Shown: piece by piece, positions 6,091 to 29,512 of the stretch | Numbering within the stretch: the first letter of the stretch is position 1 | Layout: each line of letters begins with the position of its first letter | DNA from: Candidatus Woesearchaeota archaeon | Lineage (GTDB): Archaea > Nanobdellota > Nanobdellia > UBA10117 > ARS21 | Direction of reading: 5' to 3' | DNA: 64,000 nt | NCBI GenBank assembly: GCA_964344705.1 | Contig: CAYFOG010000003.1 | Location: forward strand, 16,715-80,714 | Program-made: the position numbers and the translations under genes | Notes under the pieces: model-generated | Told to the model about the DNA's origin: nothing | What the model saw: the letters and a program-made list of their open reading frames with translations, nothing else | The model's database searches: none

Positions 6091-8595
6091 ATGGCTGAGA
6101 AGGAAGATAATGAATATGTTGACTTCAGTGAAGCTATTGCTAAATTAAAAAATTCTTGGAATAAAATAAACACTTACAAATATTTTGAACATATTGTTCT
6201 ATCAATAATTATTGGAATTTCTTTCTTTGTTCGGACGCGGAATCTTGATTCTTTGGGTGGCAAATATTTGGTTGGACTTGATCCTTATTACTATTTCAGA
6301 CTTGCTGGAGATGTCTTGGCAAATGGTAAAGTGTTATTGTTTGATACTTGGCGTAATCCTCCTCTTGGATCTGATCGAGGATTTGACTTATTTCCGTACA
6401 TCATGGCATATTGGTCAAAGTTCTTAGAAATATTTGGAGTTTCGCGAGAAATGGCTCATATAATTTATCCTCCGGTTGCTATGATTGGTATTTTAATTTT
6501 CTTTTATTTATGGTTGCGATTATTGGTTAGCAAACGTGTTGCAATAATTGCTTCGCTATTTTTGGCAGTAATTCCTGGGTTTGTTTTCAGAACTGCGGCG
6601 GGTTTCGCAGATCATGAAGCCATTTCAATTATGTTCATGTTCCTATCGCTTTGGTTGTTTACTAAGGCGGATTTGATGAAAATTTCACGAAATAAATATT
6701 TGATGATGTTTGGTGCGGGTCTTGCTGCATTTGGAATGGGTGTAACTTGGGTTGGTTATCCAATGTTGATTATTGTAATCTCCGGTTACTTGTTGAGCAA
6801 AATGCTTCTTAGCAAAGAGCGTGATGGTTATCCAAAATATTTTTGGTTCCTGACGTTTGCTGCTTTGATGTTTTTGGTAGGTAAATTACATTGGAAGAGC
6901 TATGGTTGGTTAATCGGGTTCTTCTCATTTGGAGTCTTGTTGGTTTATGATTTATTGAAAGATAGGAAATTTTTTGTTCCTAATTCGGTTTTGTCTATAT
7001 TGATTGTTGGTGTTGGAGGGTTGCTACTAAATAGTTTATTTGGTTTCTTTGATGTTGGTGCTTTCCTTTGGAATATTTTACACGCGGGTGGAGGAGATAA
7101 GTTAGCGGGAACTACTTCAGAAATTGCTCGGACTTATGTTACTTCTGGAAATAGTTATCTGGATAATTATGGCTACCTTACATTTATCTCATTATTTGGT
7201 GTTTTCTTTCTGAGTTGGAAATTGTTTATGGGTATTGGAAGAAGGCTTAGAATTACTTTAAGTTCAATTGCTGTTGGAAGTATTTTTGTTATCACAATGG
7301 GAAATTGGAATAGTGATTTCCAAATTCTTGGTAGCAATTACATTTATTTGATGCTAACTGTATTGTTTGGTCTTGTTTCTTATTATTTGTATTTGTATTA
7401 TAATAAACGCAAGGATTTTGATGTGTTGTCAAATTTGAAAAATATTAATCTGGTTATGCCAATCATTTTCTTTTTGATTATGGGTTTGCTTGCTCGAACA
7501 GCAGTGAGATTTATTTTTGTATTTGCGCCAGCGATTGCTTTATTATCGGCTGTTGCATTTGATGATTTTCTGAAACATGCAAAGCGCTACAAATTTGCAC
7601 AGCTCGGAGTTGTTCTGCTTATTGGTTTGTTGTCATTCGGCGCATTTGGTGAGGCTGCGCACGTTAGTGACGGAATGCGATCTGGACTTCCTGGGATGTG
7701 GGAAGACTCGATGGATTGGATCCGCGAGAATACTCCGGAAGGTTCTGTAATATCTCACTGGTGGGATTATGGTTATTGGACTCAAACTATTGGAAATCGT
7801 CCATCAATTAGTGATGGTGGTAAGCCAGGTGGTCAATTCTTTATTTATACTTTGGCCAGATACGGTATGACTCACGATAATATTAAGGAAAGCATGGAAT
7901 ATTTTGCTGCACACGAAGTTGATTATCTTCTTTATTCTGGTGAAGAGCTTGGAAAATATGGCGCATTTGCAACTCTTGGTTCAGATAAATATAATGACCG
8001 GGTTTCTGTGATTGGTATTTTTGCTTTGCAAGGTGAAGATGAGGCGCGGGACGGAAAGAAATTAGTATATAGTGGAAGTTGGCCTATTGATTCTCCAATT
8101 ATAGAAGGTAAAAGAGTTATACCTGCAGGTGCCGGACGAATAAACAAAGTTGAATTATATTTTGATGATGCTGAAGAAATAATTCTTGCACCGAAGGCAA
8201 CAGTTGTTGCTAATGGTTTTGAGCAAGAATATGAAATTCCTTGTTTAGTTACTGATAGCTTCAAGATTACTTATGAAGTTGGATCTGAAGTTATTGATGG
8301 TTGTGTTAGATTAATTCCGGGCGTTCAAGGAGAATATCAGAATCCTGTTGCAGGATTATTATTCATGTCTGAAAAAGTTAAAGATGGTTTGTTCGCGCGA
8401 CTTTATATTAACGGTGAACAACTTCCAGAATTTACTCAAACATATTCTTCGGATGTTCCTATAATGATTTACAATGGACAATTGGTTGGTCCGGTTAAGA
8501 TTTGGAGATTAAATTATCCAGACAATTTGGAAAATGTAGCTCGATTCTTGGATAGCGACAAGATGCCTGAGTTTGAAGAAAATTATAATTCATGA
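6091..8595 (+). CDS. aglB: archaeal oligosaccharyltransferase AglB (STT3 family, GT-C)
   Basis: 834 aa with about 13 N-terminal TM helices and the diagnostic WWDYGYW motif (SHWWDYGYWT) in the C-terminal soluble domain. Confidence 0.85.
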   Translation: MAEKEDNEYVDFSEAIAKLKNSWNKINTYKYFEHIVLSIIIGISFFVRTRNLDSLGGKYLVGLDPYYYFRLAGDVLANGKVLLFDTWRNPPLGSDRGFDLFPYIMAYWSKFLEIFGVSREMAHIIYPPVAMIGILIFFYLWLRLLVSKRVAIIASLFLAVIPGFVFRTAAGFADHEAISIMFMFLSLWLFTKADLMKISRNKYLMMFGAGLAAFGMGVTWVGYPMLIIVISGYLLSKMLLSKERDGYPKYFWFLTFAALMFLVGKLHWKSYGWLIGFFSFGVLLVYDLLKDRKFFVPNSVLSILIVGVGGLLLNSLFGFFDVGAFLWNILHAGGGDKLAGTTSEIARTYVTSGNSYLDNYGYLTFISLFGVFFLSWKLFMGIGRRLRITLSSIAVGSIFVITMGNWNSDFQILGSNYIYLMLTVLFGLVSYYLYLYYNKRKDFDVLSNLKNINLVMPIIFFLIMGLLARTAVRFIFVFAPAIALLSAVAFDDFLKHAKRYKFAQLGVVLLIGLLSFGAFGEAAHVSDGMRSGLPGMWEDSMDWIRENTPEGSVISHWWDYGYWTQTIGNRPSISDGGKPGGQFFIYTLARYGMTHDNIKESMEYFAAHEVDYLLYSGEELGKYGAFATLGSDKYNDRVSVIGIFALQGEDEARDGKKLVYSGSWPIDSPIIEGKRVIPAGAGRINKVELYFDDAEEIILAPKATVVANGFEQEYEIPCLVTDSFKITYEVGSEVIDGCVRLIPGVQGEYQNPVAGLLFMSEKVKDGLFARLYINGEQLPEFTQTYSSDVPIMIYNGQLVGPVKIWRLNYPDNLENVARFLDSDKMPEFEENYNS

Positions 8596-10431: not shown

Positions 10432-11367
10432 ATGCGTACAATATTGGTCACTGGCGGGGCTGGCTTTCTTGGAAGTCATCTTTGCAGATATCTTCTAGAG
10501 CGTAATGGTAACAAGGTCATTTGTCTGGATAATTTCTTCACTGGACAGATGGATAATTTACGAGAATTAGAAAGCAATCCAAATTTTAAGATTATCTCTC
10601 ATGATATTACTGAACCTTTAGTTGAAAGAGTTACGGAACATGTGGATGAAATTTACAATCTTGCTTGCCCGGCAAGTCCGATTCATTATCAGTTTGATCC
10701 AATTGAAACAATTAAAGCAAATACTGTTGGCGTAGTTAATGTTCTTGAGTTTGCTCGATTAAATGGTGCAAAGATTTTACAGGCTTCGACTTCTGAAATC
10801 TATGGTGATCCTGAAGTTCATCCTCAAGTTGAGAGTTATCGAGGTAATGTGAATACTCTCGGTCCGCGAGCATGTTATGATGAAGGTAAGCGTGTTGCTG
10901 AAACTCTGTTTATGGATTATCATCGGAAATATGGACTTAATATTCGAATTGTCAGAATCTTTAACACGTATGGTCCCAACATGGCTAGGAATGATGGACG
11001 AGTTGTTAGTAATTTTATTATTCAAGCATTGAACAATCAACCAATTACAATTTATGGGGATGGTAATCAAACTAGAAGTTTTTGTTATGTTTCGGATTTG
11101 GTTGAAGGATTGTACAAAACTATGAATTCTGAAGAAATGATACCGATTAATCTTGGAAATCCTGATGAATTTACAATTAAAGAATTGGCTGAAAAAGTGA
11201 TTAGTCTTACTAGTTCAAAGTCAGAGATTGTTTATCATGAACTTCCCATTGATGATCCCAAACAGCGTCAACCGAACATTGACCGTGCAAACTCAGTCTT
11301 GACCTGGTCTCCAAGAGTTAGATTAGATGAGGGTTTGAAAAAAACTATTTCTTATTTTAAGACTTAA
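10432..11367 (+). CDS. uxs: UDP-glucuronate decarboxylase / UDP-xylose synthase (short-chain dehydrogenase/reductase family)
   Basis: [14 protein letters not shown] Rossmann motif plus [14 protein letters not shown]...IKANTVG typical of UXS; 311 aa. Confidence 0.75.
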
Positions 11368-12226
11368 TCATTTGTGTTAATCCGTCTCTCAAAGAGATTT
11401 TTGGTTCCCAATTAAGTTTTGCTTTTGTTTCAGAAATATCTGCGCAGAATTTTCCGACTTCTCCTTGCCTTTCATTTGTAATATTTATGTTTGAATTTGA
11501 ATTTGTTAATTCTTTTATCATATTTGCAAGATCTCCCAATCTTGTTTGTGTTCCCGATCCAATATTTAGAGTCAGTTCTGATTTGTCTTTTAGCTTTACA
11601 AATGCATCTACTACATCCTCGATGTGGATAAAGTCAATTATTTTTTCAGAACCATATAATTCAACATCTTGATTATTCTTGAACATGTTGATAAATATTG
11701 GAATGACTCTTCCTGCGTCTCCGTGCCCATATACATTACTCATTCGAACAATATTGTAATCTAGGTTGTAAGTTTTTCCGTATGATTTTATGAGTGCTTC
11801 TCCGGCTAATTTTGAAGCTGCGTATGGATTTTCTGGATTCAATTCTGTATTTATTTTTACTGGTAATTCGCTTTGTGTTCCATAAACTTCTCGGGATGAT
11901 GCAAAAATTAGTTTCTTTTTGTGTTTTGAACATGCTTCAATTATATTTTTGGTTGATTCAATATTTACCTTGTAAGTTAGTTCTGGATTTTCAATAGAAG
12001 TCATTACTTGACTAATCGCTGCCAGATGGTAGATTATATCGTTTTGTGAGATTAATTCCTCAAAGTCTTCCACTATGTCTTGCTCAACTACTTTTACTTT
12101 TTCATTGAGAACTATGTCATTTTTTCTGTAGAAATTGTCAATTATTGTAATTTCGTGTTTCGAACAAAGTTGATTTGCAAGGTATTTGCCTATAAAACCG
12201 GCTCCGCCAGTTATCAGAATCTTCAT
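11357..12226 (-). CDS. NAD-dependent nucleotide-sugar epimerase/dehydratase (GalE-like)
   Basis: [14 protein letters not shown] and the YAASK (YxxxK) catalytic motif; convergent 11-nt overlap with uxs. Confidence 0.7.
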
Positions 12227-14164: not shown

Positions 14165-15646
14165 ATGGTTGATTATCTTCGTAGAGTCTTAAAGGGCGGA
14201 TCTTACTATTTTATTGGATTGATTATTGCCGGAATTGTTGCATATACTTCTCGAGTTGTGCTGGTTCGAAGTTTGGCTCCTGAGGACTATGGTTTATTTG
14301 CTGCAATGTTTACTGCCATTGCATTTTTTTTGTTTTTTAGGAATTTCGGATTGAATGTTTCTATTGGAAAATTTATCCCTCAATTTAAAGTTAGGAGAAA
14401 ATATTCTGAAATCAAAACTTCAGTAATATCAGTATTATTCTTTCAATTATTAATTTCAAGTTTGTTTGTTGTTCTGTTTTGGTTGAGTGCAGACTTCTTA
14501 GCTTTGAATTATTTCAAAGATGCTAGAGCAAGTTTTCTAATTCGTGTGTTCTCATTTTATTTTATTACAAGTATATTTTTCAAGAATCTCTCTTCATTCT
14601 TCAAAGGTTTTCAAAAGAATCGATTACAATCTTTGGTTGAACCGATAAAAAATATTAGCATACTTACAATGATTGTAATTTTTCTTTACTTGGGTTATGG
14701 TGTTCTTGCTCCAATTCTTGCTTATGTTTTTGCAGGCCTGGTTTTATTGTTACTATTTATTTATCCAGTTTTTAAGACATTCAATTTCAGGAGGTATCCT
14801 TTCAAAGAGTTGAGCGTGTTCAAACGAATGTTTCTATTTGGTCTTCCAGTAATGATGACTGGTGTTGGAAACAAATTTGTTAGTTATTTTGACACTTTGA
14901 TGCTGACTTATTTTTCGAGCTTGGCTGAAGTTGGAGCATATAATATTGTTCTTCCAACAGCATTGCTTTTTATGTTGCCTGCCTCGGCGATTGGTGCGGT
15001 CTTTATGCCGTTAATTTCTGAATTGTCTGCACGCAAAGATTTTGAACGTGTTAAAGTTGGCATGAGTTTGTTGTACAGATATTTGTACATGTTTAGCGCT
15101 CCAATAATTTTTAGCTTATTTATCTTCGCAGATATTCTTATTGAAAAATTGTTTGGTCCGGGTTATTTAATTGGTATTTTGGCATTTAGAATTTTGTTAG
15201 TTGGAGTTCTGTTCAATATGTTGTCTGAATTGAATAATCAATATCTGATTGGTACTGGTTGCCCTAAGAAAGTATTTTGGGTTGTATTCTTTGGATCGGT
15301 TCTCAATGTTGGTTTGAATATCTTCTTAATTCCTGTTTACGGAATTTCTGGTGCAGCAGTTGCTACCAGTTTGAGTTATCTTTTGATGTTTTCCTTATCG
15401 ACTGCCAAAGTTATTCGTGGAACTAGAATGAAACTTCCAATATTCAACTGGTTTGCACTAATACTTGGTTTGATGGCTTTTATTGGTGTGGTGTATTTCA
15501 TTAAAGGTCTAATTTCTTGGAATGTGTGGTTGGAAGGTATTGTTTCATTATCTATCGGATATGTTGTTTATTTGTATGTTTTGAAGATTCTAGGTATTTT
15601 GAATGTTGAAGAAATTATGTCGTTTGTTCGAAGAATTACTAGTTAG
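14165..15646 (+). CDS. Wzx/RfbX-type oligosaccharide flippase (MOP superfamily)
   Basis: 493 aa with about 12-14 TM, polysaccharide biosynthesis protein-like. Confidence 0.65.
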   Translation: MVDYLRRVLKGGSYYFIGLIIAGIVAYTSRVVLVRSLAPEDYGLFAAMFTAIAFFLFFRNFGLNVSIGKFIPQFKVRRKYSEIKTSVISVLFFQLLISSLFVVLFWLSADFLALNYFKDARASFLIRVFSFYFITSIFFKNLSSFFKGFQKNRLQSLVEPIKNISILTMIVIFLYLGYGVLAPILAYVFAGLVLLLLFIYPVFKTFNFRRYPFKELSVFKRMFLFGLPVMMTGVGNKFVSYFDTLMLTYFSSLAEVGAYNIVLPTALLFMLPASAIGAVFMPLISELSARKDFERVKVGMSLLYRYLYMFSAPIIFSLFIFADILIEKLFGPGYLIGILAFRILLVGVLFNMLSELNNQYLIGTGCPKKVFWVVFFGSVLNVGLNIFLIPVYGISGAAVATSLSYLLMFSLSTAKVIRGTRMKLPIFNWFALILGLMAFIGVVYFIKGLISWNVWLEGIVSLSIGYVVYLYVLKILGILNVEEIMSFVRRITS

Positions 15647-15771
15647 TACAACTTAAGATATTTATCAGTTATGAGTTTTATATCAAAGTCTTTTGCTCGG
15701 ATAATTACTAGTTAGTACAACTTAAGATATTTATCAGTTATGAGTTTTATATCAAAGTCTTTTGCTCGGAT
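15634..15771. repeat. perfect 69-bp tandem duplication (2 units: 15634-15702 and 15703-15771) spanning a convergent gene junction
   Basis: Identical string AATTACTAGTTAGTACAACTTAAGATATTTATCAGTTATGAGTTTTATATCAAAGTCTTTTGCTCGGAT occurs twice head-to-tail. Copy 1 carries the flippase stop codon; copy 2 carries the last 10 codons and stop of the minus-strand GT4 gene. Confidence 0.9.
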
Positions 15772-16797
15772 TTTTCCGTTCTTGGAGATTTTTTTCTGGA
15801 GTTCTTGATTGTTTAGCAATTCTGAAACTTTTTTGTATAAATCATTTGAATCTTTTGGTTTTGATAGTAGAATGTTTTTTCTATTTTTGAATAGTTCTTG
15901 TGTTTCTGGAAGTTTGGAAGTTATTGTAGGTATTCCCATCGCCATGCTTTCGATTACTGACAGCGGATTTGATTCTGTTGCATCTAAATTTGGATAAGGA
16001 AATACTGTTATGTGTGCTTCCGATAGATAATCAATTAGGTTCTTTTCGTCTAGAATAATTTTATAGTTTTTTTGATTTTCTAGTTGTTTATCTATTTTCT
16101 TCTTGTTCTCTTTGAACGCCTCTGAGTGTTTGCATAGAAACGTGAAGACTGTGTCGTCTTTGAATTTTGGAATTATATCTACAAGATATTTGTATCCTTT
16201 TCTGTCTGCAAGCGGACCGTAGAATAGAACTATTTTTTTGGTTTTTGACTTGGTTTTTGATTTTACATTGAACTTTTTCAAATCTATATGTGAATTGATG
16301 TATCGAATTTTGGATTTTGACGTTCCATATTTTGTTATGATTTTTTCAATTGATTTGCTTCCAAGCGTAACGTTGGATAATAGATTTAAAATTGGTGATG
16401 CGAAATATGTTCTTTTGTATTTTGTTTTTGATTTCAGAGTATGTATTCTTTTTACTTTTTGGAAAGGTTTTCCAATTATTGTTCTTATTGCAAGCAGTGG
16501 AGATGAACTGAATCCATGAATTACATCAAATTTTACATTTTCTACCAGTTCAACTTTTCTTATTCCAGTCAGAGTAAATAATAGTTTGTTAACTTTGTCA
16601 CCAAAGGGCATCTTTATTCTGTAAACTTTGACTCCATCTATTCTTTCTTTTTCAAGTAGCGGACGTCGATGGTCCGTAATTATTATTGCATTGTGCCCGC
16701 GGGAATTGAGTTCCTTTGCTAATTGGAGTGTTGATAAATTTGTGGCTTCTACTTTATTCTTATGAAATGCATTTATTACAAGAGCTATGTTTTTCAT
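15712..16797 (-). CDS. GT4-family glycosyltransferase
   Basis: C-terminal GT-B motif ...ESNPLSVIESMAMGIPTITS...; 361 aa. Confidence 0.7.
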   Translation of the reverse strand: MKNIALVINAFHKNKVEATNLSTLQLAKELNSRGHNAIIITDHRRPLLEKERIDGVKVYRIKMPFGDKVNKLLFTLTGIRKVELVENVKFDVIHGFSSSPLLAIRTIIGKPFQKVKRIHTLKSKTKYKRTYFASPILNLLSNVTLGSKSIEKIITKYGTSKSKIRYINSHIDLKKFNVKSKTKSKTKKIVLFYGPLADRKGYKYLVDIIPKFKDDTVFTFLCKHSEAFKENKKKIDKQLENQKNYKIILDEKNLIDYLSEAHITVFPYPNLDATESNPLSVIESMAMGIPTITSKLPETQELFKNRKNILLSKPKDSNDLYKKVSELLNNQELQKKISKNGKIRAKDFDIKLITDKYLKLY

Positions 16798-17483
16798 TTT
16801 GCTAATCGTTCTGCTTGTTTCCAGTCTTCGTCAGAATCAATATTTACTATTTCCCTATCAATTATGTAACTTGTACATCTGTCTCCGAACAGACTGTTCT
16901 TTTCCATTAATGTTTCTGGAGTCATAATGTAAATTTGTCCATTTTTCCAATAAGTTTGTTTTAAATCTTGACGTCTGGTTGATTTTTTATCATCATCTAT
17001 TGGTGTGTTATTTGATATGTTGAGAACTTGTCCTTCTTCAGTTAAGGTTTTTTGCCATATTGGATTGAAATGTTTTGGGGTTGGTGAGAGAGATATTAGT
17101 GAATCCCAATTTCCGTTCAAAACTGTTTCAATCGCCTCATCAATTTCTTCAGCTTTTTGGAATTGTGCGGTTGGTTGTAAGAGTACAATTAGCTTTATTT
17201 GGGAGTTTAGATTTTTAACAGTGTGTTGTAAAACTGGTAGTGTTGGAGTATTGTCTTGCGCAAGATCTTCAGGTCTATCTATTACTTCGGCACCATATCT
17301 TTGTGCGACTTCTTTAATTTCTGTGTCCTCAGTTGAAACAACTATTCGATTTATGTGTTTGGACTGCTTTGCTGCGTTGATTGTGTAAGAAATTAGTGGT
17401 TCTCCATTTAGCAATTTTATATTCTTGCGAGGAATTCCTTTTGAGCCTCCTCTTGCTGGAATTATTGCAATGACTCCTTCCAT
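16794..17483 (-). CDS. neuA: CMP-N-acylneuraminate (nonulosonate) cytidylyltransferase
   Basis: N-terminal IAIIPARGGSKGIPRKNIKLLNGEPLI signature of NeuA/KdsB-type cytidylyltransferases; 229 aa. Confidence 0.8.
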   Translation of the reverse strand: MEGVIAIIPARGGSKGIPRKNIKLLNGEPLISYTINAAKQSKHINRIVVSTEDTEIKEVAQRYGAEVIDRPEDLAQDNTPTLPVLQHTVKNLNSQIKLIVLLQPTAQFQKAEEIDEAIETVLNGNWDSLISLSPTPKHFNPIWQKTLTEEGQVLNISNNTPIDDDKKSTRRQDLKQTYWKNGQIYIMTPETLMEKNSLFGDRCTSYIIDREIVNIDSDEDWKQAERLAK

Positions 17484-18634
17484 TAATAGTTTAACCTCTT
17501 CTGAACATTAACTTCTGATTTTGCTAGTATGTCTGCTATTTGTTTTGCTGTGTTTGGTTTGAAATATAATTCGCTTTTTGGATAAGTTCCGTTTTTGACT
17601 TGTTTGAGTATTGCTTCTTTTATTTTTTCTGAATTGTGCGGGACAGTTATCACATTCTTGTCTTTTAATCGTCCTTGTTGTCGTGTCCCAATATTTACTG
17701 CTGGAGTTCCAAGGAATGAGCTTTCTTTGATTCCTGCGGAGGAATTTCCCACTATACATGATGCGTTTTTCATTAATTTTGCAAATAATTTCGGATCTAA
17801 AAAAATAAAAAAATGTACATGATTTTGTTCTGTGTGTTCTCGATAAATACGAATTGCTTTGCTTAATTCATCCGTTCCTGCATCGACATTTGGCCAGATC
17901 CAAATTGTTGGGATTTTTAACTCATCTATTGCTTTGATTGTTTCCTCGGCTTGCTTCTTGGCTTCTTTATGTTCTGTTGTAACGGGATGTTGCATTACAA
18001 TAATATATCCTTTTGACAGGTCTGGTTGTGCTCCAACTCCGCTTATTTCGCCTTCCCATAATTCCACCATATCTAAAGTTAAGTCTTGGTTGTTTAGAAA
18101 TTCTGCGTCTGGGCTTCCAACATTATAAACATCTTCAGGATATTCACCTAATTTTAGTATTCGTTCTTTTGAGATTTCGTTTGTTGAGAAGTGTATGTGC
18201 GCAAGCTTTGTTACTGCATGTCTGACTGATTCATCAATTGTTCCAGTTACATCTCCACCTTCTATGTGTGCAAGCGGTATGTTCAGGTATGCTGCTGCGA
18301 TTGATGGTGCTAAGATTTCATATCTGTCTCCGCGGATTAAAACTATATCAGGTTTTAGATTTTCAAATGCTGTTGAAAATTCTAGCAATCCCAGTCCTGT
18401 TGTTTTTGCCATTGCTGTGGGTGTTCCTCCTTCCAACAACATAGTTATTTTTTTGTTAATTTTGAATCCATCTTCTTCAATCTTAGTTATTATTTTACCA
18501 TATTTATCAATTAACGCTGAACCTGCAACAATTATTTGTAATTCTAATTCTGGATGCTCGTCTATTGCTTTCAAGATTAATTTTCCTCGTGCATAATGTG
18601 CCCTGTTTGTTATTACTACGCAGACTTTTTTCAT
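17483..18634 (-). CDS. neuC: UDP-N-acetylglucosamine 2-epimerase (hydrolysing), NeuC type
   Basis: 383 aa with an N-terminal VCVVITNRAHYARGK.. motif typical of NeuC/SiaA hydrolysing epimerases. Confidence 0.75.
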   Translation of the reverse strand: MKKVCVVITNRAHYARGKLILKAIDEHPELELQIIVAGSALIDKYGKIITKIEEDGFKINKKITMLLEGGTPTAMAKTTGLGLLEFSTAFENLKPDIVLIRGDRYEILAPSIAAAYLNIPLAHIEGGDVTGTIDESVRHAVTKLAHIHFSTNEISKERILKLGEYPEDVYNVGSPDAEFLNNQDLTLDMVELWEGEISGVGAQPDLSKGYIIVMQHPVTTEHKEAKKQAEETIKAIDELKIPTIWIWPNVDAGTDELSKAIRIYREHTEQNHVHFFIFLDPKLFAKLMKNASCIVGNSSAGIKESSFLGTPAVNIGTRQQGRLKDKNVITVPHNSEKIKEAILKQVKNGTYPKSELYFKPNTAKQIADILAKSEVNVQKRLNY

Positions 18635-19740
18635 TCTATTGCCTCCTGAGTAATTGGGTCAAATCGTTTCAAATCAATTTTTGTGGTTTTTCCAATTATA
18701 TTTGAGAATTCTTCAGAAGGTAATCCTCCGGCATATTGTTGCGGACGCATTGCATAAATCATTTCTTTTGTAATTGTAGTTCCGGCAGAAATATTTTGTC
18801 CGGCCATAAGTGACTTTCTGAATAATGGTCTGAAAACTGCTTCATCTTCATTAAGTGTTTTCTCAGTTTTTCCGAGACTTCTTTTTGTTGATTCAGAATT
18901 TAATATTTCTTGTTGTTTTTCTAAAGTTGATTCTAATTCTCTAATTCTAGAAACTAATTGCTTAAACTCTTCGGGAGTTTGTGAGACTTTATGATCTGCC
19001 CCATAGAAATCTCTTGATAAGGTGAAATGTTTTTCAATCACTTTGGATCCAAGTGCGACTGCAGCGACTGCTGCATCATTTTCGATTGAATGATCTGAAA
19101 ATCCAATTGGGATATCAAATTTTTCACTGTAAAATTTTATTGTGTTCAGATTTAGCTCTTCTGGAGGACAGGGATATTTGGATACGCAATGAAGTAGTAT
19201 TGGTGTTGTATTTTTTGATTTTAGAAAGTTGATTGCTTTTTCAGTTTCCTCGAGAGTTGACATTCCTGAGGAAAAAATTATTGGTTTTTTTGTTTCTGCC
19301 AAATAATCTAGAATTACAAAGTCAAGTATGTCTCCAGACCCTACTTTCCATACTTTGGGATTTAATTTGTTTAATCTCTTTGCTGCGCCCCGGCTCATTG
19401 GTGTTGACATGAACATTATTTTTTGTTCGTCGCAGAATTCTTTCAATGGTTTCCAAAATTCAAGAAAGGGTGTTGCGTGAGTGTTTCTAGAAACCCATGA
19501 ATATCTGTCTGATCCTTTTTTGGTGAAGTGTGGTGAAGTGAAATCAATGTTTAGTACTTCATCATGAACGTAATGAGTTTGGAATTTGACTGCATCTGCT
19601 CCGGCCTCTTTTGCTTTCAGAACAAGCTCTTTTGCATTGTCAAGATATTCTTCAACAGATCTGGATTCTTCAGTTTGAATAAAATTCTTTCCAATTTCGG
19701 CGATGATAAATGTGCGTGCTAGAAGTTTATCAAGTTCCAT
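18631..19740 (-). CDS. neuB: N-acetylneuraminate (nonulosonate) synthase, NeuB family with C-terminal SAF domain
   Basis: TIM-barrel motif GADAVKFQTHY plus a C-terminal SAF/antifreeze-like domain; 369 aa. Confidence 0.8.
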   Translation of the reverse strand: MELDKLLARTFIIAEIGKNFIQTEESRSVEEYLDNAKELVLKAKEAGADAVKFQTHYVHDEVLNIDFTSPHFTKKGSDRYSWVSRNTHATPFLEFWKPLKEFCDEQKIMFMSTPMSRGAAKRLNKLNPKVWKVGSGDILDFVILDYLAETKKPIIFSSGMSTLEETEKAINFLKSKNTTPILLHCVSKYPCPPEELNLNTIKFYSEKFDIPIGFSDHSIENDAAVAAVALGSKVIEKHFTLSRDFYGADHKVSQTPEEFKQLVSRIRELESTLEKQQEILNSESTKRSLGKTEKTLNEDEAVFRPLFRKSLMAGQNISAGTTITKEMIYAMRPQQYAGGLPSEEFSNIIGKTTKIDLKRFDPITQEAIE

Positions 19741-19787
19741 GAGTTTGGGTTGGAACTATCATTTTAAAGGTTATGAAAGAAAAATAG

Positions 19788-21173
19788 TTAGAGTCTTTTG
19801 AATTCTTTCTCAAACCCGTCTACTAGAAGTTTGGTGTTGTTTTGATCCTTCATGAATTTCTTATATTTTCCCACATAAAACGCCTGTCCGGGATGTGTTG
19901 CTTCAATAACTGCGTTTATGTATTTGTATTGCTGTTTAGTCGTTAGTTTCTTTTTGAGTGTTCTCGTTATTGCGTTTGGAAGTTCATAGAAATCTCTGAC
20001 TCTTTCAAAATAATCAAATATATCATAATATGCTCGCCCCAGAACGATTGTGGGTTTTTTGTGTAGTAATGCTTCCCATCCCGTATTTGAATTAATTGTT
20101 ATTACTCCTTTTGAATTCTTTAGAATGTCGTGAGTGTTGGTTTTTGTATTAATTAGTCTAACATTGTATAGTTTTTTTATTTTTCTTAATTCGGATATCT
20201 TGAATTCTCCTTCTCCATTTGGATGTTGTTTTACATATAATTTGTATTTTATTGGTAGATGTTTTGAAATTGATTCAATTAATTGAAATTGATTATAATA
20301 TTGTGGTGCTCGTAGAAGTATTTGTGCATCTCCGCTTCGATGTAATGGAAAATATAAATATTTTTCATTGAAATTTGGTGGTTCAGTCATATGTTTTGCA
20401 ATGGGTTTTCTTAATGGTCTGATGCTCTGTTCTTTTGCAATATGCCATAAATTTGCATAAGGATTCCTGAATTTTTCATATCGTGCATTGCTGTATATGC
20501 TTCTCACAAATGACGCTAGCTCGATTATTCCCGGTACTCTGAAAACATTGTATGTTAATTTCTTTTCTTTTTTTGTGGGAGTTAGATAGTTCTTAACTCG
20601 TTTTATTTGTTTTGTAGTCAATTTTTTGTTTTTGTTTTTCTTCCAGTATTTTGTTAACTCGTCCCATCGTCCGGCGGGATCTTTGACAGTTACAAATGTG
20701 TTTGGAATTGGATTAACTTTGTAAATCATTTGTATTGCTCTGAACCTTGGTGCAACACATCTCGGTACCAAATTTACAAATCTTTCTTGACCTCCGAGAA
20801 TTACGTCTGGTTTGTGTTTCTTCAAATATTCTTCCCAGAACTTGAAATGTTTTACCAAATCTTGGAATGCGTGTTTGCGTTTTTTTGAAGAGTAATTCTT
20901 GTCTGCAGTTAGAAGTAGGTTCATGTTTGTATTGTATTTGTCTTCATATTTTTCAAGCTCTTTTTGTAAATTATTGATTTTGTAGGTTTCAAACTTGTCA
21001 AGAATATTTTCAACGGTTTTCCCTCGTTGCTTTAGAAAATTTTCTGCCTTTTTTGAATAAGTGACGTTCTGGACCGTGTAACCTCTTGCTTCAAACTCTT
21101 CAGTTAGAACTAATTCTCGCTTTGCGAAAGTTAAGGAGTTTGATATGAATATGATTTTTTTTACTTTTTTCAT
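19788..21173 (-). CDS. KpsS/KpsC-like (Capsule_synth family) putative keto-sugar transferase
   Basis: 461 aa. The segment YLYFPLHRSGDAQIL resembles the conserved PLQ..DSQ core of KpsS/KpsC beta-Kdo transferases. The gene sits directly upstream of neuB-neuC-neuA. Confidence 0.4.
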   Translation of the reverse strand: MKKVKKIIFISNSLTFAKRELVLTEEFEARGYTVQNVTYSKKAENFLKQRGKTVENILDKFETYKINNLQKELEKYEDKYNTNMNLLLTADKNYSSKKRKHAFQDLVKHFKFWEEYLKKHKPDVILGGQERFVNLVPRCVAPRFRAIQMIYKVNPIPNTFVTVKDPAGRWDELTKYWKKNKNKKLTTKQIKRVKNYLTPTKKEKKLTYNVFRVPGIIELASFVRSIYSNARYEKFRNPYANLWHIAKEQSIRPLRKPIAKHMTEPPNFNEKYLYFPLHRSGDAQILLRAPQYYNQFQLIESISKHLPIKYKLYVKQHPNGEGEFKISELRKIKKLYNVRLINTKTNTHDILKNSKGVITINSNTGWEALLHKKPTIVLGRAYYDIFDYFERVRDFYELPNAITRTLKKKLTTKQQYKYINAVIEATHPGQAFYVGKYKKFMKDQNNTKLLVDGFEKEFKRL

Positions 21174-21212: not shown

Positions 21213-22484
21213 TTAATACTTCAGTCTGCTGAAATGTTTTTTCAATATTTTGTTGTTTATTGATGCCAGATTTTTGTTTAAGGTTTGAGATTTCAATATC
21301 TGCGCATTTGGCAGTTTTTTCAATTGTTTGTATCTGTTTTGTTGATCTTCCAAGTTTTGTTTGATAATTGTTTTTCTTCGTTTCTTGAGTTTTGTGATGT
21401 TGGTATCTATAATGAATGTTTGGTCTGGCTTTGGAAATAATCTCAAGAGCAATTTCATTATTATTGATTTCTCTGCGTAAGGATATTGCCCGTAAACATG
21501 GTAAAAATATCTGTCACAAATTACTAATTCTCTGTTTCGTAGTTTTGGATATATTTTTGTTAGATATGTTGTTAGATATTCAACAAATAAGTATGTGAAA
21601 AATAATTCGTATTTTAAACTGAATTTTGGTGTCTTTTCAACTGTTGCAGTTTTGTATAAAGCTTTCTTTGGTATTTTTTGTAATAGTTTTGTTAAAGGTA
21701 AGATTGGATTCCATCCAAAATAGAAATAATTTGCTTTGAGTTTTAATTTGTCAAACAATTTGTTGTATGTTTTTACTGACTCTTTGGAGAGTGTTGATTT
21801 TCCAGAACCGTTTGGTCCAATCAAAGCGATTAGTGCGCCTTTTCTTTTCGATGAACTCCGTTTTGTGAAGAATTGTATTAATTGCTTTGTAAGAAGCATT
21901 TGAGTCTTTATATTTAAGATTGGTTTTATTGGTAGTGTTAGTTTTTTTTCATTGATTAGTTTGTAAAAATTTCTTTTCCAGCCATATTTTTCTAATTGTG
22001 AGTTTATGTACTCATAGTCTAAGTTTTTGTTTTTGAAAATCTTTTTTTCGGTTGGAGTTATTTTTCTATTTTCAAATAATATGTGTGCAGCATGAATCAA
22101 AACTTGGTCCTCTTTGCTTGGAATTTTCACTAGTGGATTTAATTGCTTGGCTCTTTGAGTGACTTTTTCTTGGTTCAAGGCTTTTATTCCGAGCCATGCA
22201 ATTCTACGATGCAAATGTAAAATAATTATGAAATTTTTCTCAAATTTTACCATCATTGTTTTGAAAGGTTCATTCTTTTCAGTCAGATAAATTTGATATT
22301 TATTTTTTTGAAGAACTTTCATTGCTTGTTTGTAGTCTTTGTTATTTTGGAATAAAATATCAAGTCCTCCGATTGGAGTGTTATGTTTTTCAGTCTGTTT
22401 GAAAAGATTGTAATCTATTTTTGATTTATTGAAAAGCGTGAGTGGAAGTTTGTATATTTCGGGAATTTTGTATTCTACAAGCAT
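21213..22484 (-). CDS. two-domain protein: N-terminal LicD/nucleotidyltransferase-like domain plus C-terminal P-loop kinase
   Basis: N-terminal G(G)LDILF plus an HLH motif; Walker A LIALIGPNGSGKSTL at about residue 215. Paralogous in architecture to the 25339-26604 protein. Confidence 0.45.
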   Translation of the reverse strand: MLVEYKIPEIYKLPLTLFNKSKIDYNLFKQTEKHNTPIGGLDILFQNNKDYKQAMKVLQKNKYQIYLTEKNEPFKTMMVKFEKNFIIILHLHRRIAWLGIKALNQEKVTQRAKQLNPLVKIPSKEDQVLIHAAHILFENRKITPTEKKIFKNKNLDYEYINSQLEKYGWKRNFYKLINEKKLTLPIKPILNIKTQMLLTKQLIQFFTKRSSSKRKGALIALIGPNGSGKSTLSKESVKTYNKLFDKLKLKANYFYFGWNPILPLTKLLQKIPKKALYKTATVEKTPKFSLKYELFFTYLFVEYLTTYLTKIYPKLRNRELVICDRYFYHVYGQYPYAEKSIIMKLLLRLFPKPDQTFIIDTNITKLKKRRKTIIKQNLEDQQNRYKQLKKLPNAQILKSQTLNKNLASINNKILKKHFSRLKY

Positions 22485-25338: not shown

Positions 25339-26604
25339 ATGAGTTCACGTAAGAATGCTCTTAGAATTCTTAGGAAATTTGGCCAGAGCAAAGTTAATTA
25401 TGCGATTATGCGTAATTGGGAATTTTTGACTAAAGATGTTCGTCTTGGAAAAGATATTGACATTGTTATTGATTCAAAGAGCGTAGGTAAAGCTGGAAAA
25501 ATTTTGCTCAAAGAAGGTTTTGTTCGTGAGAAAATATCTCCCTACTCTCATCACTTTGGATATGCTAAATATTTTTCAAAGGAATTGAAGTTGGTTAAGT
25601 TTCATTTCCATGTTGGAGGAATAAGTGGCCGTCATGTGACTTATTTGTCTGCTGAGCAAATATTGCGTCGTCGAGAAAGGATTGGGAAATATTATGTTTT
25701 GTCTCCTGAAGATTTGTATATTTCGTTGGTTTTACATTCTCCTGGAAGCAAAAGATATTCTAAAGTTGTAAACAAGTTGAAAAAGCTTGACAAAGAATAT
25801 TTGAGAGTTAATTTGATTGATATTTTTGGAACTTCGCTTGGAACAAAAGTTTTTGAAAGTAAGTTTTCAGATTTAAGGAACTTAAAGACACAAATCCGCG
25901 GTAAAGTGTCTTTGGGTGATCCAATTGGCGCGATTTATATCCTTGGAATGTCTGTAATTTGGTATATTCCAAAACTTATTCGTGGTTCTCCAGTTGTAAG
26001 CTTTATTGGGATGGATGGTTCTGGAAAAACTACTGCAACTTCTAAGATGATTGAGCTCTTGAAGGAGCATCGGATAAAAAGTGAGTTGGTTTATGTGGGT
26101 CGAGGTAGAGGAAATATTCTTCCGATTCAATTTTTTGGTAGAAAGTACAAACGTAGAGAGAAACAGATTGATTCTAAGTCAAAAAAGAATAAGGATATTA
26201 AATTTTCAAGAAAAGTTTTGTACTCTTTGGCTGCGCCGGTGTTTTACTTGGACTTTTTGTTAAGATATTTCAGAGTTTTTGTTGCTCGACGAACTAAGAA
26301 AGTTGTAATCACAGATAGATTTGCAACGGACTTCTTGATTATGAAGAATGTTCCGTTGTGGTTGAGAAATTTATTGTATATTTTGTCTCCGAAACCCAAC
26401 GCAGTTATTTATTTGTATAATTCTCCAAGGCTCTTGTATAAACGAAAACCGGGTCACCCGGCAGGTGATTTAGAGCGTCAAGAAAAATTATATGCTTCGG
26501 TTCTTAGAAAAGTGAAAAAAGTTCACAGAGTTAAAAGTTTGAATGAGTGTCAAACAATCCAAGATGTTTCAGAAATTATTTTTGGTGAGATAATTTCAAA
26601 TTAA
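25339..26604 (+). CDS. two-domain protein: N-terminal LicD/nucleotidyltransferase-like domain plus C-terminal thymidylate-kinase-like P-loop kinase
   Basis: N-terminal RLGKDIDIVID (GxDxD NTase-like) plus an FHFHVGG motif; Walker A SFIGMDGSGKTT (Tmk-type GxDGxGKTT). Confidence 0.45.
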   Translation: MSSRKNALRILRKFGQSKVNYAIMRNWEFLTKDVRLGKDIDIVIDSKSVGKAGKILLKEGFVREKISPYSHHFGYAKYFSKELKLVKFHFHVGGISGRHVTYLSAEQILRRRERIGKYYVLSPEDLYISLVLHSPGSKRYSKVVNKLKKLDKEYLRVNLIDIFGTSLGTKVFESKFSDLRNLKTQIRGKVSLGDPIGAIYILGMSVIWYIPKLIRGSPVVSFIGMDGSGKTTATSKMIELLKEHRIKSELVYVGRGRGNILPIQFFGRKYKRREKQIDSKSKKNKDIKFSRKVLYSLAAPVFYLDFLLRYFRVFVARRTKKVVITDRFATDFLIMKNVPLWLRNLLYILSPKPNAVIYLYNSPRLLYKRKPGHPAGDLERQEKLYASVLRKVKKVHRVKSLNECQTIQDVSEIIFGEIISN

Positions 26605-27610
26605 AGCTTTTGTAGAGTTTCAAATAATTTTCATTCATCTGCTTTTCATCGTACAGTTTTTTTACTCGCGCTCTTGCAGATTTTCCAAGGCGTTTCTGAA
26701 GTTTTGGATTTGATTTTAGCTTCTTAACTGCTGAGGTAATTTGCTTTGGTGAGTAAGTATCAACACATATTGCTGTATTTCCTACAATCTCCTTTATGTG
26801 TGGAAGGTTTGTTGTTATTATTGGTTTTCCACAAGACATTGTTTCAATTAAAGTGAGTGGAATTCCAATTGAAGAAACGTCTGATCGGAAAGGTAACACG
26901 ATTATGTCTGATTTATTGTAATCTTTGACTATGTTTTTGCTTGGTCCGTAAACTTTGATTCTTTCGTTGTGTTTCTTTGCGTAGCTTTCCGTTTTTTCTG
27001 AATACTGTGTTAGGTGTAAATTTAGATTTAGCTCTTTATCATCTAACAATTTGAAGGCTTTTACTGCGTCTGGAAAACCTTTGAGTGGTGTGTTATGTCC
27101 AAAATACGCTAAAGTTAATTTTTTGTTCTTTGATGTTTTAGTTGGTTTGAATTTGTTTGTGTCTATTCCTAACCGAATTAGTTTTGTGTTTGGAAGATTT
27201 AGTTTGTTTTTGAGATATTTTGTTGGAACTACAATTGTGTTCATCTTGCTTATTGCTCGGGTTTTGAAAGTGAGAGGTATGAAATTAGTTATTGTTGCAG
27301 GAATCATTCTTAATAAATATGTAATTTTTGATTTTTCATAGAATTTTAAGTATTCAAGTATATATCTTAAATATTCCAGAGGATTGCTTGCTAGATTTGA
27401 GTGTAATGAATATATTGCTTTATCTGAAATGTTCTTGTTTGTTAGTGCTGGAAGAAATCCTGAAGTATGTATATGATATAAATCTGCAGAATTTCCGTTG
27501 TGAGTTATTTTGTACTTCTTTTTCTGCATATAGTTTTTGATTTCTGATTGAATTTGTACTAATCCTTCTGCTTTGAAATCTTTGAAATCTCCAATAAACG
27601 ATACTTTCAT
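26576..27610 (-). CDS. GT4-family glycosyltransferase
   Basis: ...GIPLTLIETMSCGKPIITT... GT-B C-terminal motif; last gene of the heptose operon, with a 4-nt overlap to the upstream GT9. Confidence 0.65.
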   Translation of the reverse strand: MKVSFIGDFKDFKAEGLVQIQSEIKNYMQKKKYKITHNGNSADLYHIHTSGFLPALTNKNISDKAIYSLHSNLASNPLEYLRYILEYLKFYEKSKITYLLRMIPATITNFIPLTFKTRAISKMNTIVVPTKYLKNKLNLPNTKLIRLGIDTNKFKPTKTSKNKKLTLAYFGHNTPLKGFPDAVKAFKLLDDKELNLNLHLTQYSEKTESYAKKHNERIKVYGPSKNIVKDYNKSDIIVLPFRSDVSSIGIPLTLIETMSCGKPIITTNLPHIKEIVGNTAICVDTYSPKQITSAVKKLKSNPKLQKRLGKSARARVKKLYDEKQMNENYLKLYKSFNLKLSHQK

Positions 27611-28602
27611 CTCAATTCCCTCAAAACATCAGCTAATTTTATTTTATTCAGCTCTTTTCCGTTTCCAAAATATTTTCCCCTGTTGTTGTAACTTGGTGCT
27701 TTTTGCTTCCAGATTACTTTGCTTCCTTTGTTTAACGGCCCGAGTCGCTTTGGATCAGTTGGTCCAAACAGCGCGATTACATTGTTGTTGACTGCTGATG
27801 CCATGTGCATTGGTCCAGAATCATTACAAATTATTTTGTTACACTTGGCCATTAATGCTACGCTTTGGTGAAGTGTTGTTGTTCCTATTACTGAGTTTAC
27901 TGTTTTGGATTTTAGTATTTCTTCTTCTTTGTCTTTGTCCGTTGGTCCACCGAGCAAAAGTATTGGTTGCTTAATCTTTTTCACAAGCTCAACATACTTT
28001 TTGATATTCCAGATTTTTGCGTTTAGTGTTTGGCCGGGGTTGTCGCCTCCGCCAGGACATATTCCAATCGTGTTCTTTGTTAGTTTATGAGTTCTAAAGA
28101 ATTTGTTTGCAAAGTTTTTGTCTTCTTTTGTGAGGATTAAATCTAGTTTTGTATCATAATAGTTTGGTTCAAAGTTTAGTGCATTGAGTTGGTTTAGATA
28201 ATAATAGATATCGTGCCGTCTTCGGCCATAATGTATTTTGTGTGTTAATCCGTACCCTTCTTTTCCGTTTCTGTCAAATCCAATTCGCGTTGGAATGTTA
28301 AACAGCCGTGCAGTTAGGTTGAATATCCAATGCCGGTCAAGAACGAAGATTATGTCGTAGTTATCTTCTCGGATTCCCGCGATTAGGTTAATTAGTTTGA
28401 GTGGTTTCTTCTTGAAGAACATTGCTTCATCAAATTTTATTATGTTGTTGATGTTTGGGTTGTTTAGAAGTGCTTGTGAAGCAGACTTTCCGACTAGATA
28501 ATCTATTCTTGCTTTGGGGTGCGTTTGTCGAAGTTGTCTGACTAAGGGTGTGGTCATTAACGTATCTCCAATTGCTCCTATCTTAAACAATAATATTTTC
28601 AT
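27607..28602 (-). CDS. GT9 ADP-heptose:acceptor heptosyltransferase (WaaC/WaaF-like)
   Basis: N-terminal ILLFKIGAIGDTLMTTPLVRQLRQ..P.A.IDYLV is the GT9 heptosyltransferase signature; 331 aa. Confidence 0.75.
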   Translation of the reverse strand: MKILLFKIGAIGDTLMTTPLVRQLRQTHPKARIDYLVGKSASQALLNNPNINNIIKFDEAMFFKKKPLKLINLIAGIREDNYDIIFVLDRHWIFNLTARLFNIPTRIGFDRNGKEGYGLTHKIHYGRRRHDIYYYLNQLNALNFEPNYYDTKLDLILTKEDKNFANKFFRTHKLTKNTIGICPGGGDNPGQTLNAKIWNIKKYVELVKKIKQPILLLGGPTDKDKEEEILKSKTVNSVIGTTTLHQSVALMAKCNKIICNDSGPMHMASAVNNNVIALFGPTDPKRLGPLNKGSKVIWKQKAPSYNNRGKYFGNGKELNKIKLADVLRELR

Positions 28603-29512
28603 TTGCTTTTATCCATTCAATATATTCTTTTATTCCGCTTTCCAAATTGTATTTGGATTTGTAGTTTGGCAAAAAGTTGTTTGTGTCTGCTTGTGTGAAC
28701 TCTTGGTAGAATTTGTATGGGTTGTCAATGTATTCTGGTTCGAGGTTTGTGCCTAAGTTTTTGTTTAATTCTTCAACGATTTTATTGAAATCTTCGGGGG
28801 TTCCAGTTGCTACGTTGTATATTCCGGACGGTGCGTTCATTGCGATTATGTTTGACTCAACTATGTCTTTGATATAAACAAAATCTCGTTTCTGTTGTCC
28901 GTGTTTGAATATTTTTGGTTTATTTCCCTCTTTCATCTGCAAGTATAGTTGCCAAATCATTGATGACATCTTTGTTTCCATTTTGTAAGTCTCTCTCGGT
29001 CCGTAGACATTGAAGTATCTTAGTCCAACAATGTGAGTGTTTGGATTTTCCTTTAGAGTTTGTCTTGCTATATTGTCGCAAGATAGTTTTGAGTATCCGT
29101 ATATGTTTGCAGGAAATTCGCCTTTCCCAACTGTGTTTGGTGGTACTGTTAATCCGTATGTTGCTCCAGAAGAGGCATAGATAAGTTTGATATTATTTTT
29201 CACACAGTGATTGATTAGTCGCTTTGTTACATTTGTGTTGATTTCCATCACAAGCTTTTGGTCGGTTTCTGTTGTGACAACTTGTGCGCCTTGGTGGAAG
29301 ATTGTTGTTGGTTTATCCAACGCGTTCCAATCAAATTCTCGCAAGTCGGAAGTTATTACTTCACCATTGAAACCGTACAAGTTCTTGAAGTGTCCTGTGC
29401 TGAAGTCATCAATAACAGTTATCTTTGCTTTAGGATATATTTCTTGCAGCTCTAATGCTAAGTTGGAACCTATAAACCCCGCACCTCCCGTTACTACAAA
29501 GTGTTCAACCAT
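28583..29512 (-). CDS. hldD: ADP-L-glycero-D-manno-heptose 6-epimerase (HldD/RfaD-like SDR)
   Basis: [18 protein letters not shown]...VIDDFSTG plus a YGYSK catalytic motif; embedded between hldE and GT9. Confidence 0.7.
   Translation of the reverse strand: MVEHFVVTGGAGFIGSNLALELQEIYPKAKITVIDDFSTGHFKNLYGFNGEVITSDLREFDWNALDKPTTIFHQGAQVVTTETDQKLVMEINTNVTKRLINHCVKNNIKLIYASSGATYGLTVPPNTVGKGEFPANIYGYSKLSCDNIARQTLKENPNTHIVGLRYFNVYGPRETYKMETKMSSMIWQLYLQMKEGNKPKIFKHGQQKRDFVYIKDIVESNIIAMNAPSGIYNVATGTPEDFNKIVEELNKNLGTNLEPEYIDNPYKFYQEFTQADTNNFLPNYKSKYNLESGIKEYIEWIKANENIIV

Follow-up and report, generated by a model that had tools for sequence, protein, structure and literature searches.

Introduction

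Proteins of the Capsule_synth family PF05159 that lie beside nonulosonic acid synthesis modules (Gtr59, KpsS1, KpsS2 and orf10 of E. coli O108) were proposed in 2015 to be retaining glycosyltransferases of acinetaminic, pseudaminic and 8-epilegionaminic acids (PMC4487303). One of them, KpsS1 of Acinetobacter baumannii, is by the account of a later paper a retaining transferase of Pse5Ac7Ac and the founder of family GT118 (Walklett et al. 2024, cited in PMC12887879). Here we describe a candidate archaeal counterpart, a 461-aa protein encoded beside a neuB-neuC-neuA cassette in a 64,000-nt stretch of DNA from a Candidatus Woesearchaeota archaeon (assembly GCA_964344705.1, contig CAYFOG010000003.1, our C3:16715-80714). 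This whole stretch is referred to below as the window, and all coordinates are those of the window. The assembly to which it belongs comprises 539,699 bp in 31 contigs and is 90.9% complete and 0.6% contaminated. To our knowledge no archaeal enzyme has been assigned the attachment of a sialic-acid-like sugar.

In a survey of 122 archaeal genomes, components of nonulosonic acid pathways were found in fewer than 20% and complete pathways in six species (PMC6137143). The only nonulosonic acids detected chemically in archaea are pseudaminic acid, in an extract of Methanobrevibacter smithii, and legionaminic acid, in Halorubrum sp. PV6 (PMC6137143). A preliminary description of the window had called sialic acid decoration rare in archaea, and this holds for such chemical demonstrations (PMC6137143) but not for the genes in this phylum, where we found the NeuB family in 115 of 401 sampled genomes, about 80 of the matches being strong.

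We propose, with a probability of roughly 0.6 for the whole, that the region is best explained as the nonulosonic acid module of a surface-glycan island. The cassette would supply a CMP-activated sialic acid and the 461-aa protein, which had been put forward from the sequence as a candidate transferase for a 9-carbon keto-sugar, would use it; that candidacy is credible and is supported by the analyses below. The label "non-Leloir-type" that came with it is a misnomer for a CMP-sugar-dependent transferase, since such transferases are Leloir enzymes.

Sequence and fold of the 461-aa protein

The gene lies on the minus strand at 19788..21173, 47 bp upstream of neuB, and its product is a candidate CMP-nonulosonate transferase of the KpsC/KpsS fold. 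A hidden Markov model (HMM) search gave 61.5 bits for PF05159 over residues 256-385 (gathering cut-off 20), so that the resemblance to Capsule_synth first noticed in the YFPLHRSGDAQ core (residues 274-284) is borne out. HMMER aligns this core to the KpsC motif, pairing PLHRSGDAQ with PGQVESDAS of the T. dismutans (Thermosulfurimonas) KpsC 6mgd at an E value of 5e-7. The narrower NCBIfam models scored below their cut-offs: NF050054 (KpsS) gave 32 bits against 600, by which score the protein fails as a KpsS/KpsC proper, and NF046086 (the BFO_1060 family) gave 42 bits against 200, in the C-terminal domain only (residues 310-411). Hydropathy revealed no transmembrane segment in the protein.

An AlphaFold (AF2) model made with 32 homologues (pLDDT 90.4, pTM 0.88) was compared with solved structures by re-aligning Foldseek matches and by an independent search of 48,161 representative chains. 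The raw Foldseek order was uninformative, with generic GT-B proteins and 2-epimerases on top at TM 0.24-0.32 until the matches were re-aligned. The top structural matches were then two KpsC structures, 6mgb (Z 17.0, root-mean-square deviation (rmsd) 4.2 over 274 residues) and 6mgd (Z 16.8), together with WbbB at Z 16.0-16.4 (5fa0, Z 16.0); KrkA matched at Z 12, and the remaining GT-B proteins stood at Z <=13 with rmsd 7.5-10, the next unrelated one at Z 13.0 and rmsd 7.5. The alignments to KpsC and WbbB run over nearly the whole protein (rmsd 3.6-4.5 over 260-300 residues) at 12-15% identity, and the model predicts for the 461-aa protein the modified GT-B architecture of these two enzymes. No sialyltransferase of GT38, GT42, GT52 or GT80 was among the top 50 of the 48,161 chains or among the Pfam and NCBIfam matches, a distant kinship still being possible.

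The residues on which catalysis depends in the Kdo transferases are largely in place. D282 aligns with Asp165 of the QXXXD motif of T. dismutans KpsC, a residue that becomes Kdo-modified and whose equivalent in E. coli KpsC, Asp160, has been proven to act as the nucleophile (PMC10148158). All 32 of 32 homologues have D or E at position 282, and in the HP motif (H317-P318) the His is invariant and the Pro is kept in 25 of 32. H317, E367, K373, N337 and G365 are invariant throughout the 32 homologues, and in the N-terminal domain E77, Y80, D91 and E114 are at least 90% conserved among them.

Genomic neighbourhoods of the candidate transferase and its probable donor

Homologues of the transferase keep company with nonulosonic acid genes in both domains: NeuB and/or a PF02348 gene lies within about 15 kb in some 12 of the 16 archaeal contexts and in all five distinct bacterial contexts that we examined. 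For instance, a homologue with 43% identity (P0014/G388) has NeuC directly upstream and NeuA and NeuB 2-3 kb off, another (G088) has NeuC at 2 kb, and a third (P0018) shows the order transferase-NeuA-NeuB(SAF), NeuC lying downstream at 3.7 kb from the transferase gene. An archaeal subclade of the transferase (f14) has NeuB, NeuA and DegT neighbours. In bacteria, a homologue from Planctomycetota (28% identity) closes the series PseB-PseC-methyltransferase-NeuA-formyltransferase-NeuB-transferase, and homologues from the Candidate Phyla Radiation (CPR) and other bacteria all have a PF02348 gene at a distance of 7 kb or less. Of the 401 sampled genomes of the phylum 12 have the transferase, 11 of them together with a strong NeuB match, compared with NeuB in 115 of all 401; taken from the other side, PF05159-like proteins are found in 7 of 80 NeuB loci that were not selected for the transferase.

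On these grounds of sequence and gene context we lean, somewhat beyond even odds, towards the CMP-Neu5Ac-type product of NeuA as the donor of the 461-aa enzyme. Several observations weigh against such a donor. In Kdo transferases the donor carboxylate is bound by the Gln of QXXXD; H278 stands in its place here, at a position that is H in 20 and Q in 8 of the 32 homologues. A homologue with 59% identity (P0009) has a pseudaminic-type gene set alongside, which means that the donor type is not fixed within the transferase clade. One genome (G195) has kept the transferase with no NeuB in a 95%-complete assembly and only a weak PF02348 match, and on another contig (P0016) there is no nonulosonic acid gene within 10 kb of the homologue. 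There is in addition the precedent of the TagB-like SpsB gene of B. subtilis, which lies within the legionaminic operon and is dispensable for legionaminic acid transfer, a reason for caution in relying on gene adjacency (PMC7439481).

Some of these points fit an alternative in which the protein ignores CMP-nonulosonate and works on some other substrate together with a second neighbour, neuBCA being a swappable companion. The substrate might be a different CMP- or CDP-activated group, or the protein might prime a lipid acceptor as KpsS does. The second neighbour is a fusion of a nucleotidyltransferase-fold domain and a thymidylate-kinase-like domain (NTK; 21213..22484, minus strand; weak PF02223 and PF14907 matches), encoded 39 bp upstream of the transferase gene; a paralogue of the same fusion architecture lies at 25339..26604 on the plus strand. 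NTK adjoins the transferase in 6 of 7 contexts of the close subclade, including that of P0016, and no NeuB locus without the transferase has it. The alternative gains also from the persistence of the transferase in G195, from the differing nonulosonic acid gene sets beside close homologues, from the resemblance of the C-terminal domain to TagB/TagF-type CDP-glycerol transferases in some relatives, and from SpsB.

We nonetheless regard it as unlikely. NTK is found in 34 of the 401 genomes, and in 18 of these 34 NeuB lies within 20 kb, so the pair still points to nonulosonic acid glycans; as a conserved neighbour NTK goes with NeuB clusters as well as with this transferase subclade, which weakens the reading of transferase and NTK as a module unrelated to the sugar. 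The fold is far nearer to the CMP-Kdo transferases than to any other GT-B protein, with no TagF within the top 50 structural matches, and the catalytic carboxylate and HP motif are conserved. Finally, the f14 subclade has no NTK and yet has NeuB and NeuA as neighbours. NTK might modify the sugar or recycle CMP.

Other observations were made on these neighbourhoods. The locus of G195 (L036, G195:C5:4551-24500) holds, around the transferase homologue, PAPS-reductase-like and CysN-like genes, two phosphodiesterase/sulfatase-like genes and a flippase. At five further loci (L017 and L018, both from CPR, L011, L043 and L045) the candidate beside NeuC, NeuB and NeuA is a Glyphos_transf (TagB/TagF-like) protein and not one of PF05159, and some proteins match both families in the C-terminal domain; the two families may fill the same role. 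SpsB of B. subtilis may be the protein that PF05159 matched in a control genome; the open reading frame (ORF) in the SpsB position of Pontibacillus (L069) is not of PF05159.

The neuB-neuC-neuA operon

All four ORFs, the transferase gene and those of the cassette, are intact on the minus strand. The cassette consists of neuB (18631..19740; 369 aa), a phosphoenolpyruvate (PEP)-dependent nonulosonate synthase with 244 bits for PF03102 and a C-terminal SAF domain at 21.5 bits (cut-off 21); neuC (17483..18634; 383 aa), a hydrolysing UDP-GlcNAc 2-epimerase that would yield N-acetylmannosamine (ManNAc), with 257 bits for PF02350 and a match to TIGR03568 (NeuC_NnaA); and neuA (16794..17483; 229 aa), a CMP-nonulosonate synthetase with 97 bits for PF02348. 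The three had been described as a tight operon with overlapping stops and starts, and the junctions read from the sequence agree: neuB/neuC overlap as ATGA, neuC/neuA as TAATG, and neuA and the glycosyltransferase gene of family GT4 that follows it again as ATGA, so that neuB, neuC, neuA and the downstream GT4 gene are translationally coupled. In the 47-nt spacer between the transferase gene and neuB (19741..19787, minus strand) a TTTAAAAT box has its centre about 27 nt ahead of the neuB ATG. This box may be an archaeal TATA box for a separate, leaderless neuB-neuC-neuA-GT4 transcript.

Genome-wide there is one copy each of NeuA, NeuB, NeuC and the PF05159 transferase, by custom HMMs as well, and neuA is the sole PF02348 cytidylyltransferase. 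NeuC scores 397.9 bits for TIGR03568 over residues 2-370 against an equivalog cut-off of 235.9 and finds its best solved relative in the human GNE epimerase (234 bits, compared with 209 for LegG, in a search of the Protein Data Bank). The solved relatives of NeuA in the same search are led by CMP-Neu5Ac synthetases at 101-107 bits.

To proteins of CPR/Patescibacteria (Sungbacteria, Saccharibacteria and others) NeuB shows 61-68% identity, compared with only 31-38% to most other NeuB proteins from bacteria and archaea, that of the related archaeon G388 being more distant still. NeuC is 50-54% identical to its CPR relatives and to its archaeal relatives alike. These identities suggest that the neu cassette has been exchanged between CPR bacteria and DPANN archaea.

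Which sugar is made

Both the pseudaminic and the legionaminic route depend on a 4,6-dehydratase, an aminotransferase of the DegT family and an N-acetyltransferase. The preliminary description had reported no PseB/PseC- or LegB/LegC-type genes, and we too found none, either in the window or in the rest of the 91%-complete assembly; nor did the assembly contain a DegT-type aminotransferase by Pfam or NCBIfam models or by custom HMMs, any match at all to the NeuD/PglD acetyltransferase model, or KdsA. Two weak DegT matches in the genome proved to be NifS and an aspartate aminotransferase, and the Polysacc_synt_2 model matched only generic short-chain dehydrogenases/reductases (SDRs) across the assembly. 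With a single NeuA, NeuB and NeuC and no DegT, NeuD/PglD or KdsA, a donor of the CMP-Neu5Ac type is the only CMP-ulosonic donor for which the assembly accounts.

The type of NeuB and NeuC was approached through 80 NeuB loci from species-representative genomes, each classified by its neighbouring genes, and through a quick LG+G4 tree of 90 NeuB sequences with SH-aLRT supports. The NeuB of the window belongs to a 15-row clade (SH-aLRT 98), 11 of whose rows have NeuC next to them and no aminotransferase; the sister of this clade (SH-aLRT 96) is of the PseB+DegT, NeuC-free type, and the NeuC+DegT (legionaminic-type) rows stand elsewhere. Scores of NeuC proteins against an HMM of the window type are bimodal, with 449-712 at aminotransferase-free loci and about 110-350 at loci with an aminotransferase, and the NeuC of the window, at 701, belongs to the former class. 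As to the possibility raised in the preliminary description, that NeuB might cluster with pseudaminic or legionaminic synthases and its missing partners lie elsewhere, NeuB falls in a mostly NeuC-adjacent, aminotransferase-free clade and no partners were found in the assembly.

NeuC, NeuB and NeuA make up the complete set for the N-acetylneuraminic acid (Neu5Ac) route, for which the preliminary description had called them sufficient. Judged by gene content, the sugar is likely of the Neu5Ac type, made via UDP-GlcNAc, ManNAc, Neu5Ac and CMP-Neu5Ac. As to precursors, the assembly encodes GlmS and a PPDK/PpsA-like enzyme, by which PEP can be made.

Other results speak against this identification. 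NeuB is below the equivalog cut-offs of both models in question, at 278.7 bits against 399.65 for TIGR03569 and 236.5 against 340.25 for PseI, and is a member of the family below equivalog level. The closest solved relative of NeuB (161 bits, Protein Data Bank search) is SpsE, a member of the B. subtilis legionaminic pathway (PMC7439481), and the best NCBIfam match of NeuA is PseF (175 bits, under the cut-off of 205.7). The NeuB tree was built without an experimentally typed NeuB, LegI or PseI reference, and the assignment of NeuB to the Neu5Ac type rests on gene context. The 91%-complete assembly yielded no GlmM-type phosphohexomutase, GlmU-type enzyme or enolase, and its sole NTP_transferase is GalU-like and cut by a contig end. 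With neither GlmM nor GlmU found, the assembly does not account for the supply of UDP-GlcNAc, which may be encoded in the missing 9% or come from a host, on which the organism may depend for nucleotide-sugar precursors.

It might accordingly be argued that the cassette makes a 5,7-diamino sugar of the legionaminic or pseudaminic type, or some other derivative, its partner genes being in the unassembled 9% or its precursor being taken from a host. The PseF and SpsE affinities favour this, as do the incomplete and metabolically reduced state of the genome and the pseudaminic-type surroundings of the homologue with 59% identity, and NeuC-type enzymes, as the LegG match recalls, serve the legionaminic route too. 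Two SDR genes at 10432-12226 in addition have LegB matches, at a weak 124-132 bits, but score higher as dTDP-glucose dehydratase and GalE. Set against these points, neither a DegT-family aminotransferase nor the NeuD/PglD acetyltransferase was found by the Pfam and NCBIfam models or the custom HMMs, and NeuB and NeuC each fall in an aminotransferase-free class. Moreover, at the loci examined the partner genes are mostly within a few kb of NeuB, and here the surrounding 64 kb is fully assembled. We therefore hold a diamino sugar to be distinctly improbable and retain Neu5Ac as the likely product.

Genomic setting

The window is archaeal by the markers that it encodes (PolD DP2, Cdc6/Orc1, LonB, a Hef-type helicase and nuclease, and STT3/AglB), and a surface-glycan island occupies about 6-33 kb of it. 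The island includes AglB, GT2/GtrA genes, a Wzx-type flippase and the neuBCA cassette with its transferase, and has as further members a GT4-methyltransferase fusion, a GDP-mannose dehydratase and an ADP-heptose operon with two GT9 genes. AglB, an oligosaccharyltransferase of the STT3 type (6091..8595, plus strand; PF02516, 63.7 bits), provides the context for an N-glycan destination. The flippase is of the Wzx/MOP type (14165..15646, plus strand; PF01943, 109 bits), is convergent with the neu operon and probably exports a lipid-linked glycan. The GT4 gene whose start overlaps the end of neuA lies at 15712..16797 on the minus strand (PF00534, 87 bits), and in the related loci L009 and L128 the same slot likewise holds a GT4 gene and then a convergent flippase.

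That the cluster is a recently acquired or decaying passenger without present function, as the CPR-like NeuB (suggestive of lateral transfer), the patchy occurrence of the transferase and the missing precursor-supply genes might imply, is very improbable indeed, given ORFs that are all intact and translationally coupled, homologues 73-93% identical on several independent metagenome contigs, a G+C content of the neu cluster that matches its surroundings, and catalytic residues that have been kept. A search of sequencing runs listed no RNA run and four DNA metagenome runs of a single study, three of them possible sources of this DNA.

Where the flippase and GT4 genes converge, a 69-bp tandem repeat (15619-15771; 2.2 copies, 95% matches) runs across their 3' ends. 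The ADP-heptose operon with its two GT9 heptosyltransferases (26576-33132) is 5 kb from the neu cassette. In bacterial lipopolysaccharide, heptose is added to Kdo by GT9 enzymes, and we speculate that heptose from this operon may be linked to the ulosonic acid here.

Discussion

If the region is a nonulosonic acid module, as we propose, its workings may be envisaged as follows. NeuC would hydrolyse and epimerise UDP-GlcNAc to ManNAc, NeuB would condense ManNAc with PEP to Neu5Ac, and NeuA would activate Neu5Ac with CTP to CMP-Neu5Ac. At the cytoplasmic face of the membrane the soluble 461-aa enzyme would then move the sugar from CMP onto a lipid-linked oligosaccharide, the coupled GT4 enzyme would extend the glycan, the adjacent Wzx-type flippase would flip it, and AglB would probably deliver it to surface proteins. 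Our assignment of the acceptor and of the final destination of the sugar is weak.

By analogy with KpsC, WbbB and KpsS1, the transfer itself might be a double displacement in which D282 acts as the nucleophile towards the donor's C2, CMP is held by E367 and the HP-motif residue H317, and the acceptor is activated by E77, D91 or E114, all acidic residues of the N-terminal domain. That the mechanism is retaining is a tentative suggestion drawn from this likeness, and the fuller claim, that the 461-aa enzyme is a retaining KpsC-type transferase that uses CMP-beta-Neu5Ac, is doubtful. Were it true, there would be a covalent Asp282-sialyl intermediate and a beta-linked sialic acid as product. We know of no report of beta-linked sialic acid among natural sialosides.

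The axial C5 substituent that Kdo and Pse share has been argued to help position the acceptor, and the paper in question, of 2026, argues on structural grounds that sialic acids should not be readily accepted by Kdo-like enzymes of the retaining kind, which counts against our proposal (PMC12887879). The locus described here does not stand alone in this respect, as those of G388, G088 and P0018 likewise pair a PF05159-type enzyme with a NeuC-type, aminotransferase-free route. Either the 2026 prediction fails, or the enzyme works in another way, for instance by inversion, or the product of its neighbours is not its substrate.

The central question is whether the KpsC-type fold can use CMP-Neu5Ac, and with which stereochemical outcome. 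The archaeon offers a clean test case, in that its genome is very small, the Neu5Ac type is the only CMP-ulosonic donor route found, and the only candidate transferase recognised is of the retaining Kdo/Pse fold. Adduct assays are already in use for enzymes of this fold, namely WbbB, KpsC and KrkA. Should the enzyme prove to be a retaining transferase that uses CMP-beta-Neu5Ac, it would furnish a counterexample to the argument against sialic acids in Kdo-like retaining transferases (PMC12887879) and, for archaeal glycans, the first nonulosonic acid transferase to be assigned. If the fold cannot use sialic acid, the locus would be one more ordinary surface-glycan gene cluster of a widespread class.

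Comparison with known systems

The cassette by itself is ordinary. Its three enzyme families are those of the sialic acid route of E. coli K1, Neisseria meningitidis and human GNE, gathered here in one operon, and the likeness extends to a NeuC that exceeds its equivalog cut-off and to sialic acid enzymes as the nearest solved relatives of both NeuA and NeuC. It differs from the bacterial and animal Neu5Ac route in that NeuB and NeuA are under their equivalog cut-offs, the nearest relatives of NeuB are from CPR, and no known sialyltransferase family is recognised in the cluster.

Among archaea the closest parallel is the legionaminic N-glycan pathway of Halorubrum sp. PV6, also a nonulosonic pathway tied to an AglB-dependent surface glycan (PMC6137143). 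The LegB/LegC/LegH-type genes on which that pathway depends were not detected here, and it has no transferase assigned to it.

With regard to the transferase, the 461-aa protein shares the QXXXD Asp, the HP motif and the Glu of the CMP site with the retaining beta-Kdo enzymes KpsC (GT107; 6mgb, 6mgd, 6mgc, 8fuw), WbbB (GT99; 5fa0, 8csb) and KrkA (GT140; 9yfx). Unlike them it has His in place of the QXXXD Gln and is a single module without a membrane anchor, its identity to them being no higher than the 12-15% given above. Its setting differs too, as this genome has no KdsA and no second cytidylyltransferase, and CMP-Kdo is consequently not available in it.

The Pse- and Leg-derivative transferases of Tannerella forsythia (NF046086, BFO_1060) resemble it in having a C-terminal domain with an HP motif and in lying in a nonulosonic acid locus (PMC5420450). 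They are described as TagB-like, and the 461-aa protein scores far under the cut-off of 200 for their family and has an N-terminal domain unrelated to theirs by sequence. The Tannerella Pse and Leg transferases are 81% identical and yet differ in nonulosonic stereoisomer (PMC5420450).

KpsS1, Gtr59 and KpsS2 are also among the closest known systems. They resemble the 461-aa protein in family (PF05159) and in size, in lying next to a module for nonulosonic acid synthesis and in their kinship with KpsC, KpsS and WbbB, and to all of them, as to the 461-aa protein, the transfer of a CMP-activated 9-carbon ulosonic acid is assigned. In contrast to KpsS1, the 461-aa protein is archaeal and is encoded in a putative N-glycan island, not in a bacterial capsule locus; and the donor route beside it is of the Neu5Ac type, with an equatorial C5 substituent and a beta-CMP donor, and not that of pseudaminic acid. 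The transfer of nonulosonic acids by PF05159 enzymes is already known in bacteria, so that the idea is sound and not new in kind, and the transferase is to be seen as an archaeal variant, in a sialic acid context, of a known kind of bacterial enzyme. What sets it apart is the domain of life, the likely destination in an AglB-type glycan island and, above all, a donor of the sialic acid type.

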